In this document: piece by piece, positions 1,628 to 10,613 of the stretch
Layout: each line of letters opens with the position of its first letter
Numbering within the stretch: the first letter of the stretch is position 1
DNA from: a virus
Strand: one strand, 5' to 3'
DNA: 12,883 nucleotides
Virus genome (UHGV): UHGV-1980648
Notes under the pieces: generated by a model
The model's database searches: none
What the model was told of the DNA's origin: nothing
What the model saw: the letters and a program-made list of their open reading frames with translations, nothing else
Made by a program: the position numbers and the translations under genes

Positions 1628-2668
1628 ATGGCTAACGCCTGGCTCAGATTATGGCATGACATGCCAAATGACCCTAAGTGGCGAACAATTGCCAGGGTGT
1701 CAGGGCAGCCAATTGCAACAGTGATGGCAGTGTATATCCACCTTCTGGTGAGCGCGTCACGAAATGTCACGACATGTCACGGCGTGTCACTACGTGGTCA
1801 CATTGATGTCACGACGGAAGATTTAGCAAGTGCGCTTGATGTGACGGAAGAAGTAATTGATTCAATTTTACAGGCAATGCAGGGGCGGGTACTTGATGGA
1901 GATTTAATCACCGGATGGGAAAAACGCCAGGTACTGAAAGAGGACAATGGCAACGTTTCACAAACCGCGAAATCCCCGGCAGAGCGCAAGAGAGCGCAGC
2001 GCGAGAGGGAAAAATTACGAAAACAGAATGAGGGGTGTCACGACGAGTCACGCATATGTCACGACATGTCACGACGAGTCACGACAGATAAAGATACAGA
2101 TAAAGAATTAAACCCCACACATAACGCGCACGTGCGCGAGAGTGCTCCGACCAGTGAGTCGAGTGGTACGCCGTTGCAGGCAGCAGAACCTGCATCCCTG
2201 GATGGACTGAGCGAACCCATCGGGAAATTTCCGATGGTCGATGACTGGCATCCGTCGCCGGATTTTCGACGACGGGCTGCGTTGTGGGGGATGGCTTTGC
2301 CGGAGCCGGAATTTACACCTGCTGAACTTGCCGCTTTCCGGGACTACTGGGCAGCGGAGGGGAAAGTTTTCACGCAGGTTCAGTGGGAGCAGAAATTCGC
2401 CCGTCACGTAAATCACGTCAGGGCGCAGGTTAAGCCAGTCAGCAAGGGGGTAAACCATGCAGCAGCACCAGGTGGCACCGCATCACGGGCAGTTCAGGAA
2501 ATTCGGGCAGCACGTGAGCAGTGGGAACGTGAAAACGGATTTATCAGCGACGGAAACGGTCTGGAAGCTGTGGGAACTCATGGGGGAGGTTTATTCGAAC
2601 CGCTGGACCCAGAAGAACGGGGCCGCACCTTCGAAGCTCTGGATTGCACAGATTGGCGCGATGACTGA
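1628..2668 (+). CDS. Replication initiator / replisome organiser (functional O analogue, YdaU-like) with internal origin iterons
   Basis: ATG at 1628 with GAGGTGA RBS (the ORF track starts at a GTG at 1622); 346 aa; two iteron clusters inside the ORF; the next gene is a lambda-P-like helicase loader. Confidence 0.6.
   Translation: MANAWLRLWHDMPNDPKWRTIARVSGQPIATVMAVYIHLLVSASRNVTTCHGVSLRGHIDVTTEDLASALDVTEEVIDSILQAMQGRVLDGDLITGWEKRQVLKEDNGNVSQTAKSPAERKRAQREREKLRKQNEGCHDESRICHDMSRRVTTDKDTDKELNPTHNAHVRESAPTSESSGTPLQAAEPASLDGLSEPIGKFPMVDDWHPSPDFRRRAALWGMALPEPEFTPAELAAFRDYWAAEGKVFTQVQWEQKFARHVNHVRAQVKPVSKGVNHAAAPGGTASRAVQEIRAAREQWERENGFISDGNGLEAVGTHGGGLFEPLDPEERGRTFEALDCTDWRDD
1754..1815 (+). repeat. 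Iteron cluster 1: six GTCAC(GAC/GGC) repeats at roughly 10-11 bp spacing, putative ori
   Basis: gcgtcacgaaatgtcacgacatgtcacggcgtgtcactacgtggtcacattgatgtcacgac; helical-turn periodicity; located inside the initiator gene, as lambda ori is inside O. Confidence 0.6.
2037..2085 (+). repeat. Iteron cluster 2: five GTCACG(A)C repeats at 10-11 bp spacing
   Basis: gtcacgacgagtcacgcatatgtcacgacatgtcacgacgagtcacgac; same core as cluster 1, about 220 bp downstream. Confidence 0.6.
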
Positions 2669-3122
2669 GCAGCAAATCCGACAGGTCTGCCGCCAGTGCA
2701 TGGACCGCTGCCGGGCGGGTGAAACATGGCCTCCGGACCTGGCTGAGTTTGTGGCGCTGATTTCAGAAAGCGGGGCCAATCCATTTGGCCTGACGGTGGA
2801 TGCTGTGATGGAGGAGTACCGCCGCTGGCGTGATGAGTCCTGGCGATATGACGGAAGCGACAAATATCCGTGGCCTCAGCCTGTGCTGTACCACATCTGC
2901 CTCGAAATGCGTACCAGAGGGATTGAGCGCCAGATGACGCAGGGTGAGTTAAAACGACTTGCGGAACGGCAACTGACGAAATGGGCAAAGCATGTTGGTA
3001 ACGGGATGAGTGTTCCGCCAGTGCGACGACAACTGGAAGGGGCGAAACACCCGCAAGGGCCAACGCCAATTGAACGGCTGAAACAGGAATACGAACGCCG
3101 GAAGGCAGCTGGTTTTATTTGA
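2457..3122 (+). CDS. Lambda P-like replicative helicase loader
   Basis: Resemblance to lambda P by eye (ETWPPDLAEFVALISE...YPWPQPVLYHICLEMR...GELKRLAERQ against lambda P ...PSPGQFVAWCREE...YPWKSNAHYWLVTNLYQNMR...). ATG 2457 has an AAGGGGG RBS, but the ORF overlaps the initiator by 212 nt; alternative in-frame starts are 2580 and 2661, the latter forming ATGACTGA with the initiator stop. Confidence 0.7.
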   Translation: MQQHQVAPHHGQFRKFGQHVSSGNVKTDLSATETVWKLWELMGEVYSNRWTQKNGAAPSKLWIAQIGAMTEQQIRQVCRQCMDRCRAGETWPPDLAEFVALISESGANPFGLTVDAVMEEYRRWRDESWRYDGSDKYPWPQPVLYHICLEMRTRGIERQMTQGELKRLAERQLTKWAKHVGNGMSVPPVRRQLEGAKHPQGPTPIERLKQEYERRKAAGFI

Positions 3123-5080: not shown

Positions 5081-5324
5081 GGATATTCCTCGCGAAATTA
5101 AAGAAATTAACGAAATCATTGAGGTTACTGATCGCCCCGAGTTTACCCTCATGCGTCGTTATGAAACAGGAACCGACGAACAAAAATACATCATGGTTGC
5201 AGCATTGGCTGTGATGGCGATAGAAAGGGAGCGAAGGGAAAAGGACGTAATGGTTATTCCTGAGAGAAATGATTCACCGGATTTGAGATGGCAGGAGCCG
5301 GAGTGGGATGTGGTAATCCGGTGA
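5079..5324 (+). CDS. Small acidic hypothetical protein (81 aa), divergent from the zinc-ribbon gene
   Basis: ATG 5079 with AAGGAGA RBS 8 nt upstream; its start codon overlaps the minus-strand start of the 4406-5080 gene within CATG; no recognisable domain. Confidence 0.3.
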   Translation: MDIPREIKEINEIIEVTDRPEFTLMRRYETGTDEQKYIMVAALAVMAIERERREKDVMVIPERNDSPDLRWQEPEWDVVIR

Positions 5325-6078: not shown

Positions 6079-6140
6079 CTTCGCACGCCAGCAAAATCTG
6101 GCGTCGGGATTTGCACCCCGGATATTCAACCGCGACAGAC

Positions 6141-6162
6141 ACACGCCGCGAGCGTGTTTTTT
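6141..6162 (+). terminator. Intrinsic terminator or attenuator in the leader upstream of the ORF6N gene
   Basis: ACACGC-cgcga-GCGTGT followed by TTTTTTGTT; preceded by two further hairpins at 6086-6103 and 6104-6120. Confidence 0.5.
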
Positions 6163-6326
6163 GTTGTCGTAAGCACACGCACATCTGAATTATGGTGGGG
6201 CGTATGGGGGAGCCGAAAGGCTCGCCGGTTGGTTGATCCGGTAGTGCAAACCCTGTACGTCTCACCACCCAAAGATTTGCACCTGACGGTGGTGATAGTT
6301 AAATTCATCAACCAGAGGGCGTTGTC

Positions 6327-9926: not shown

Positions 9927-10123
9927 TTGTCTGGCTGCCGGAGAATTTGTTAAAAATTGCATCGCGTGGTGAATCCCCCTCAGCGGCGGGGCATCTGGCA
10001 AAGTGTATGATCCAGCGAACATGCAAATTCAGTAGCCAGGCTGAATTTACCGGGAGGCACCTGGCACCATGCGACAGACAGAAATTAGGCTATACTTCAG
10101 CCCCTCTCCGGAGGGGCTTTTCT
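9927..10123 (+). repeat. Paralogous unit A: promoter-like box, structured core, intrinsic terminator (candidate small RNA gene)
   Basis: TTGTCT (9927-9932), 17-nt spacer, TTAAAAAT; core closed by CGCGTGGTG (9963-9971) pairing with CACCATGCG (10065-10073); internal hairpin AAATTCAG/CTGAATTT; terminator at 10099-10123. Confidence 0.5.
10099..10123 (+). terminator. Intrinsic terminator of unit A
   Basis: GCCCCTC-tccg-GAGGGGC followed by TTTTCT. Confidence 0.6.
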
Positions 10124-10312
10124 GTGCAGGATGTGTCACAGTTTCCTGAATTCTGAGTACTGTCCTGTTACTCAGGGTGCTATATTTTCTGACGTGATGA
10201 AAGTCTGCCGGAAGGCGGAACGTATCGGAAATGACCCAGTAGAGAAAACGTTGACTCAGATACCGATGCTGAGTTACCGGGAAACCGGCATCACATGACC
10301 GCTATCCTTCCA

Positions 10313-10395: not shown

Positions 10396-10606
10396 TTGTC
10401 TGGCCAGCGGGAAGTTTGTTAAAAAAATATGGCATGGTGAATCCCCCTGTGCGGAGGGGCATATCAGCGACAGGTGTTTGGTCACACCCCTTATCCTTTC
10501 TGGTGCGGGTTCAGGTGCTGATACTGAACTCACCGGGAGGCACCCTGCACCATGCATGAACGGTACATAGCGCTACTCTCCAGCCCCTCTCCGGAGGGGC
10601 TTTCTT
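10396..10606 (+). repeat. Paralogous unit B: promoter-like box, structured core, intrinsic terminator (candidate small RNA gene)
   Basis: TTGTCT (10396-10401), 17-nt spacer, TTAAAAAAATAT; core closed by GCATGGTG (10432-10439) pairing with CACCATGC (10548-10555); internal hairpin GTTCAG/CTGAAC; shares blocks TGGTGAATCCCCCT and CACCGGGAGGCACC with unit A. Confidence 0.5.
10582..10606 (+). terminator. Intrinsic terminator of unit B
   Basis: GCCCCTC-tccg-GAGGGGC followed by TTTCTTGTTG. Confidence 0.6.
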
Positions 10607-10613
10607 GTTGGAT

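Follow-up and report, generated by a model that had tools for sequence, protein, structure and literature searches.

The question raised by the locus described here is what two clusters of short direct repeats might be doing inside the coding sequence of a phage replication gene. The locus belongs to the virus genome UHGV-1980648, of which a stretch of 12,883 nucleotides (nt), referred to below as the window, was analysed; the gene in question occupies positions 1628-2668 of its + strand. A first-pass annotation of this DNA had taken the gene for a replication initiator and the repeats within it for the binding sites of that initiator. The answer to which the sequence and its relatives point is that the repeats are probably the iterons of a theta-type replication origin embedded in the gene for its own initiator, such that the N-terminal half of the protein would bind the repeats, an A-rich tract beside the second array would be melted, the host helicase DnaB would be recruited and the first array would serve as an auxiliary site.

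Array 1 (1756-1813, + strand) consists of six copies of GTCAC(G) that start at 1756, 1766, 1776, 1786, 1797 and 1808, with copy-to-copy spacings of 10, 10, 10, 11 and 11 nt, and array 2 (2037-2083, + strand) of five copies of GTCACG that start at 2037, 2047, 2058, 2068 and 2078, with spacings of 10, 11, 10 and 10 nt. Tandem Repeats Finder and a second repeat finder agree on period-10 arrays at both places, and together with these positions they bear out the six and five copies at 10-11-bp spacing listed by the first-pass annotation; its separation of about 220 bp also holds, the start of array 2 lying 229 bp past the start of the final copy in array 1. The repeat unit itself, given earlier as GTCAC(GAC), has to be redrawn, since the GTCAC part stands and the longer unit is not conserved. 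The true core is the 6-mer GTCACG, a G following GTCAC in 86% of 203 sites in relatives of the gene. Outside both arrays, the ~12.5 kb that are left contain only 8 + strand copies of GTCAC, and the densest 60 nt of the window hold 6 copies, as compared with a maximum of 3 across 300 first-order Markov simulations of the same sequence.

Repeats of this kind might conceivably have no function as DNA, and be either low-complexity sequence generated by slippage and tolerated in a loop or linker, or a repeat at the level of the protein. Both arrays do encode segments that are predicted to be disordered, array 1 the loop at amino acids (aa) 43-62 of a winged-helix domain (with predicted local distance difference test scores, pLDDT, below 50 at residues 48-55) and array 2 the start of an interdomain linker at aa 137-152 (pLDDT below 50 at 137-165). 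The copy number also changes in slippage-like steps; array 1 of the window is expanded by 21 nt, equal to two iterons or 7 aa, and most relatives have 4 copies. However, a period of 10-11 nt does not divide into whole codons, and the copies are translated in three different frames (successive copies lie in frames 2, 0, 1, 2, 1 and 0 in array 1 and in frames 1, 2, 1, 2 and 0 in array 2). When the codons of the initiator gene were reshuffled synonymously with the protein sequence kept (2000 shuffles), GTCAC was found 3.8 +/- 1.5 times (maximum 10) vs 12 times in the gene as it stands, and this excess, taken together with the use of all three frames, indicates a feature of the DNA and not one imposed by the protein sequence. 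The 6-mer core is, in addition, invariant across genera while its flanks vary, and the class of the repeat switches in both arrays together, as described below, so that a lack of DNA function appears extremely improbable. The location of both arrays in predicted loop or linker segments is presumably the reason why the protein tolerates them.

Both arrays lie within the open reading frame of 1628-2668, and the peptides that had been quoted for them, VTTCHGVSLRGH and CHDESRICHDMSRRVTT, are found in its translation of 346 aa. That the product is a phage replication initiator, as first proposed, agrees with its protein families, its database names and the lambda-P-like gene next to it. The protein matches PHROG 1408/3729, "replication initiation protein"; the RefSeq coding sequence with the same coordinates in Escherichia coli ABU 83972 is named "DnaT-like ssDNA-binding domain-containing protein" (ssDNA, single-stranded DNA), and the NCBI name for its relatives, and in some phage records, is "phage replisome organizer". 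The N-terminal winged-helix domain (aa 1-100; 1628-1927, + strand) is presumed to be either the iteron reader or an oligomerisation domain. Searches of the N-terminal half against Pfam and NCBIfam returned nothing usable, even at E <= 10, and comparison of the predicted structure tentatively places the DnaD N-terminal domain and RepA_N nearest in fold. Between the wing and array 2 lies a basic helix (aa ~113-134, AKSPAERKRAQREREKLRK; 1964-2029, + strand; helix 117-134 in the AlphaFold2 (AF2) model), which might read DNA and is a possible specificity determinant. The C-terminal part contains a DnaT-like ssDNA-binding domain (aa 201-267; 2228-2428, + strand) that is recognized by Pfam PF17948 with an E-value of 9.6e-18 (64 bits vs a cut-off of 25). 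The NCBIfam model for DnaT (NF002770) covers aa 192-278 only, at 97 bits and under its equivalog cut-off of 201, and a sequence-profile search of the PDB gave only weak DnaT matches, to the C-terminal part.

If the arrays belong to an origin, an element that is easily unwound might be expected close to one of them, and the first-pass annotation had suggested looking for an AT-rich stretch downstream of array 2. Such an element is present at 2084-2112, where the coding strand reads ACAGATAAAGATACAGATAAAGAATTAAA, a purine-only A-rich tract of the form ACAGATAAAGAT x2 ...AATTAAA that contains a 12-nt tandem repeat, has a guanine-plus-cytosine (GC) content of 35% and shows a strong A skew. It is kept in 34 relatives, representing all iteron classes and sampled segments of 41-67% GC, whose profiles were anchored on the last iteron: the mean GC falls from ~0.55 to 0.24-0.33 at +10 to +40 from that iteron and then recovers. 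In the relatives the tract is likewise purine-only on the coding strand, in the form (C)AGATAAAGATAAAGA or AGAGAAGAG, and it is translated as DKDKD in 26 of them, as QIREE in 6 and as RLDKRR in 4. The preservation of one motif across three reading frames implies that selection conserves the DNA. Array 2 is always immediately upstream of the A-rich tract, which is likely to be the unwinding site and is at the same time a candidate mosaic joint, as discussed below; array 1 has no adjoining tract. A second unwinding element after array 1, at 1840-1879 (35% GC in this window), was considered and rejected, the dip in GC not being conserved in relatives.

The surroundings of the arrays hold a few other features. 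Just past the A-rich tract there is a perfect 12-bp palindrome, GCGCACGTGCGC (2126-2137), read from the sequence, which is part of the C-terminal module described below and is imperfect in the Rac-SA53 prophage; lambda also has a palindrome past its AT-rich region. The "terminator-like" matches at 2116-2138 represent merely this palindrome. A scan for DnaA boxes showed no enrichment in the window and none within the origin. An inverted GTGAC is found at 1841-1845, 33 nt past array 1, within a near-repeat (1803-1853) of TTGATGTCACGACGGAAG / TTGATGTGACGGAAGAAG coding for DVTTED / DVTEE. All close relatives have the inverted GTGAC at gene nt 214, or at 193 where the gene is shorter, as do those Aeromonas and Pseudomonas phages that were checked, and it may be a reversed site or only a matter of codon choice.

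The distribution of the arrays among relatives provides a further line of evidence. Both arrays are kept in 80 close viral loci, array 1 having 4 or 6 copies and array 2 having 3-5, and array 1, at gene nt ~129-181, is found among close relatives as well as distant ones. An Aeromonas phage, pAEv1818, and a D3-like Pseudomonas phage, whose N-terminal domains are ~70% identical, carry GTCACG at gene nt 129-160 and 388-418, and the Ralstonia phage Hennie, at 37% identity, carries GCAACG at nt 131-183 and 402-432, that is, in the same two places. The comparison was extended to 47 bacterial genomes, most of which have GTCACG; a GTAACG class is represented by Pantoea, Enterobacter and Marinobacter, and a CGAACG(C) class by Janthinobacterium, Massilia, Collimonas and others. 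The arrays occupy the same gene positions in relatives that include Aeromonas, Pseudomonas, Bordetella, Chromobacterium and Ralstonia, and wherever both arrays exist the class of array 1 is that of array 2. A fixed position, a changing sequence and concerted change are together the pattern that protein-binding sites co-evolving with their reader should produce.

Binding by the initiator would not of itself specify an origin, and one or both arrays might serve mainly for control, through autoregulation, a roadblock to rightward early transcription, titration or handcuffing by which re-initiation is limited, or a means of keeping out related phages. Of the two arrays, the first is the likelier to have such a role, which would be compatible with array 2 as the origin: the A-rich tract adjoins array 2 only, and array 1 is dispensable in some relatives and varies among 3, 4 and 6 copies. 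Iteron arrays of plasmids often serve in control as well. On the other hand, where array 1 is present it has a fixed position in the gene and the same class as array 2, as would fit a single nucleoprotein complex, and there is no promoter-like site near it (a scan for promoters and terminators gave nothing exceeding background near the arrays). A mainly regulatory function is accordingly judged unlikely, and we retain the origin as the probable function of the arrays.

The claim that the protein is constrained by its own sites is also supported in the relatives. The iteron-encoded residues S44, V47, T48, R56, G57, H58, S148 and V151 are invariant in 37 relatives of 62-82% identity, in which neighbouring residues vary, and iteron-encoded residues change when the iteron class changes, the loop reading SRNVTRGH in the GTCACG class and SNATERGRT in the CGAACG class. 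Outside the iteron-encoded loop, the N-terminal domain is nearly as similar between classes (0.63) as within them (0.67-0.71). The only residues found to discriminate between the classes are 46 and 48, both of them iteron-encoded, and position 108, after which the alignment shows a basic segment that differs between GTCACG-class and CGAACG-class proteins. If the loop contacts the iteron, array 1 could encode, in residues 46 and 48, part of the apparatus by which the iteron is read. We regard this self-referential specificity as decidedly doubtful; were it true, a single conversion or slippage event would alter a binding site together with the residues that read it, which would explain the in-step switching of class and would offer origins a route to new specificities (and to new incompatibility groups) that is undescribed for lambda O, G38P or RepA_N.

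Some individual relatives depart from the common pattern. In Erwinia phyllosphaerae (locus L109), GTCACG is very dense at gene nt ~140-185 and 410-455, with some copies 5 nt apart (GTCACGTCACGTCACG) and with inverted copies, and two loci closely related to it (L110 and L112) have mainly GTAACG with a few GTCACG mixed in; this looks like a switch of specificity in progress. In a Serratia and a Pantoea locus (L127 and L135), the arrays and the tract are replaced at gene nt ~330-400 by CTACGTAG/TACGTAGTA repeats, with the N-terminal domain kept. In these two, the C-terminal domain differs as well, having the motif GISxNPWAR, and is GIY-YIG/T5orf172-like by eye.

The arrays appear to travel with one half of the initiator gene. 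Phage matches to the region break at window positions ~2086-2106, within the A-rich tract. In the phages vB_EcoS-689R5, Tritos and Evi, the N-terminal half is present together with the arrays and the tract, and the C-terminus is unrelated; the YdaU gene of Rac-SA53 and the PPompW prophages match from the tract onwards, across the DnaT-like domain and P (for Rac-SA53 YdaU, this stretch is 90% identical in nucleotides up to the end of P), and have as their N-terminus an unrelated DUF1376 domain without GTCACG arrays. The phage matches H1-H13 span the C-terminal half and P as a single block, and in our alignment of the family, A1, a single conserved N-terminal module is followed by many C-termini that are unrelated to one another. 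Such split matches and fusions indicate that the N-terminal half with its iterons and tract, and the C-terminal half with P, are separate, exchangeable modules that are joined in the A-rich tract. The same modular arrangement is found in the RepA_N initiators of pSK41 and pPR9 (PMC5703833).

Two observations concern the Rac-SA53 version of the region. An isolated GTCAC at 2403 of the window lies within the C-terminal module, is common to Rac-SA53, and was taken as a chance occurrence. In Rac-SA53 ydaU itself (locus L087, 1516-2586), an inverted pair, TGTTCAAACA / TGTTTGAACA, is located a few tens of nt upstream of the GATACAGATA...AATTAAACCCC tract. The pair may be the site of the different N-terminal domain at an equivalent origin, and as such a candidate for the Rac-type origin, oriJ, for the sequence of which no description was found in the literature.

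A number of results weigh against an origin bound by its own initiator, and they are best considered together with the possibility that the repeats are bound by some other protein, such as the YdaT/cII-like regulator or a host factor, with the origin elsewhere in the prophage. The putative recognition helix of the winged-helix domain (aa 74-84, EEVIDSILQAM) is acidic, a property that would suit a different reader, and the DnaD N-terminal domain, which is the best match in fold, does not itself bind DNA (PMC7145576). In some E. coli phages, furthermore, the cII-like gene upstream and the N-terminal half are inherited together. On the opposite side, distant relatives in Pseudomonas and Ralstonia that have other upstream genes keep the arrays inside the gene for the homologous N-terminal domain, the iteron class follows the lineage of the initiator, and the combination of the arrays with an A-rich tract and with genes for a helicase or a loader is that of a classic origin; we therefore consider another reader very unlikely. 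The remaining points against an origin are of different kinds. Several loci (L083, L117, L118 and L126-L129) have no array 1 or no obvious repeats, from which it follows that the family does not depend on array 1. The gap between the arrays ranges over 211-319 bp, mostly 227-229, and strict helical phasing between them has been rejected on this ground. The plasmid database PLSDB contains no plasmid with the gene as its evident sole replicon, the matches being only large plasmids, mislabelled chromosomes and phage-sized circles. Finally, the literature searched, including that on replisome-organizer iterons, DnaT-type prophage initiators and the "Eru" types of Shiga toxin (Stx) phages, holds no description of GTCACG iterons or of this origin. 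We nevertheless regard an iteron origin within the initiator gene as the probable explanation.

Based on these comparisons, the following sequence of events can be proposed for the origin. Derepression of the prophage would lead to synthesis of the initiator, whose N-terminal winged-helix region, probably with the help of the basic helix, would bind the iterons. As the direct repeats are one helical turn apart, its subunits would be aligned on one face of the DNA and might form an oligomer resembling the "O-some" of lambda. The complex at array 2 would melt the adjoining 30-40-bp A-rich tract (2084-2112), and the C-terminal DnaT-like domain, together with the lambda-P-like protein, would bring host DnaB to the melted DNA. 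Array 1, ~229 bp upstream, would be auxiliary, and could raise the local concentration of the initiator or loop to array 2. Binding by the N-terminal half, melting of the tract, recruitment of DnaB by way of P and the role of array 1 are steps that we infer from the arrangement of the sequence.

The setting of the locus is that of a temperate phage. The window represents the early region of an E. coli lambdoid prophage, a 1.7-kb query from it being 100% identical in carriers that include ABU 83972 and NCTC86; in ABU 83972, the prophage adjoins a remnant of ompW. Of 5426 complete E. coli genomes, 3188 match parts of the 1.7-kb region and 658 contain at least 80% of it. Upstream of the initiator gene are genes for a DicA/cI-like repressor (303-764, - strand), a YdaS/cro-like protein (872-1147, + strand) and a YdaT/cII-like protein (1131-1556, + strand), and downstream of it are the lambda-P-like helicase-loader gene (2661-3122, + strand; Pfam Phage_lambda_P, E 5e-16; PHROG 109, "P-like helicase loader"; RefSeq "replication protein P") and then a DUF1627 gene. 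From this order of genes, rightward early transcription would cross the origin. The P frame is open from 2457 to 3122 (+ strand), as a reading frame of 221 aa that overlaps the final ~210 nt of the initiator gene, the RefSeq start of P being at 2661. The Phage_lambda_P match starts at residue 55 of this longer frame (~nt 2619) and the PHROG 109 match at residue 19, and PHROG 15931 is apparently a fused initiator-P product. The true start of P may thus be upstream of the annotated ATG, inside the C-terminus of the initiator.

Some features of the window are more remote from the replication genes. Rfam matches above the gathering score were obtained for two copies of the STnc100 small RNA (9934-10127 and 10403-10612), and for the Hfq-binding RNA isrK and a P1/P7-type C4 antisense RNA (6085-6162; 6188-6272). 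A short tandem repeat, GAAATTAAA x2.6, is located at 5094-5116. At 240-275, downstream of the end of the repressor gene at 303, AAAAAACCGACTAAGACGTCGGTTTTTTTG forms a strong hairpin followed by a run of T; judged from its sequence only, it looks like a bidirectional intrinsic terminator.

If the proposed function is correct, the locus would add a further family of initiators with the origin in their own gene, unmatched in sequence to lambda O, G38P or RepA_N, and it would strengthen the view that this arrangement recurs because the reader and its site thereby stay linked through mosaic recombination. The RefSeq record annotates no origin and describes the gene only as encoding a "DnaT-like domain protein". 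The module is common in E. coli, with relatives across gamma- and beta-proteobacterial prophages. Placement of the putative origin at 2037-2112 offers a target for marker-frequency and induction studies, including those on the PPompW type of prophage next to Stx2a phages, and a small candidate replicon. The natural series of classes, GTCACG, GTAACG, GCAACG and CGAACG, would make the co-evolution of initiator and origin open to experiment.

Among known systems, the closest parallel in layout is lambda, to which the first-pass annotation had compared the locus while supposing that the iteron and the protein family were different. Both parts of that comparison hold. In lambda O, as in the present protein, the iterons are tied to the N-terminal half and P to the C-terminal half, and the order of genes (repressor, cro, cII, initiator and P-like loader) is shared as well. 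The lambda iterons and an adjacent AT-rich tract lie in the middle of the initiator gene O (PMC7466680), and a second source also places the origin within gene O for lambda and Stx phages (PMC6022878). In O proteins of Stx phages, two extra iterons add 13 aa (PMC7466680), much as the extra iterons of array 1 lengthen the present protein by 7 aa. Four differences separate the locus from lambda, and likewise from the SPP1 and pSK41 systems described below. The present sites are short asymmetric 6-bp cores, one for each helical turn (those of lambda are four to six sites of ~19 bp); the arrays number two and are separated by 229 bp; array 1 lies within the coding sequence for the putative DNA-binding domain; and the initiator has a DnaT-like C-terminus. 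Phage_rep_O, the family of lambda O, gave no match to the protein, its N-terminal half included, even at E <= 10.

The Bacillus phage SPP1 has its oriL in gene 38, with AB boxes that are bound by G38P and an adjacent AT-rich DNA-unwinding element, and G38P, which is without an AAA+ domain, works with a separate loader and helicase (PMC5737612). G38P carries a Phg_2220_C domain, whereas the present initiator has a DnaT-like domain, and the partner here is a lambda-P-like loader and not G39P/G40P. Similarity to G38P was not detected by hhalign of alignment A1 (probability 0.1%, E 0.69) or as a Pfam match to Phage_rep_org_N or Phg_2220_C, and the PHROG matches to "replisome organizer" (4.5e-05) and "DnaD-like helicase loader" (4.8e-07) are weak. 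The RepA_N plasmid pSK41 has Rep boxes inside its rep gene (PMC5703833). The plasmids of this type (pSK41 and pTZ2162, from Firmicutes) recruit DnaG, in contrast to a phage with a P-type loader; a two-array layout is not described for RepA_N, and RepA_N (PF06970) gave no Pfam match in the initiator. The C-terminal domain resembles E. coli DnaT (primosomal protein I) in its ssDNA-binding domain (PF17948), yet the initiator is not an orthologue of DnaT, the score of its C-terminal part being well short of the equivalog cut-off. YdaU differs in its N-terminus, which is the unrelated DUF1376 domain, and in having no GTCACG arrays. As far as sequence can tell, the locus combines the clustered direct repeats, the adjoining AT-rich element and the co-inheritance of both with a putative DNA-binding half by which iteron-type origins are recognized. 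The layout is already known from lambda, and here it belongs to another protein family, so far uncharacterised.

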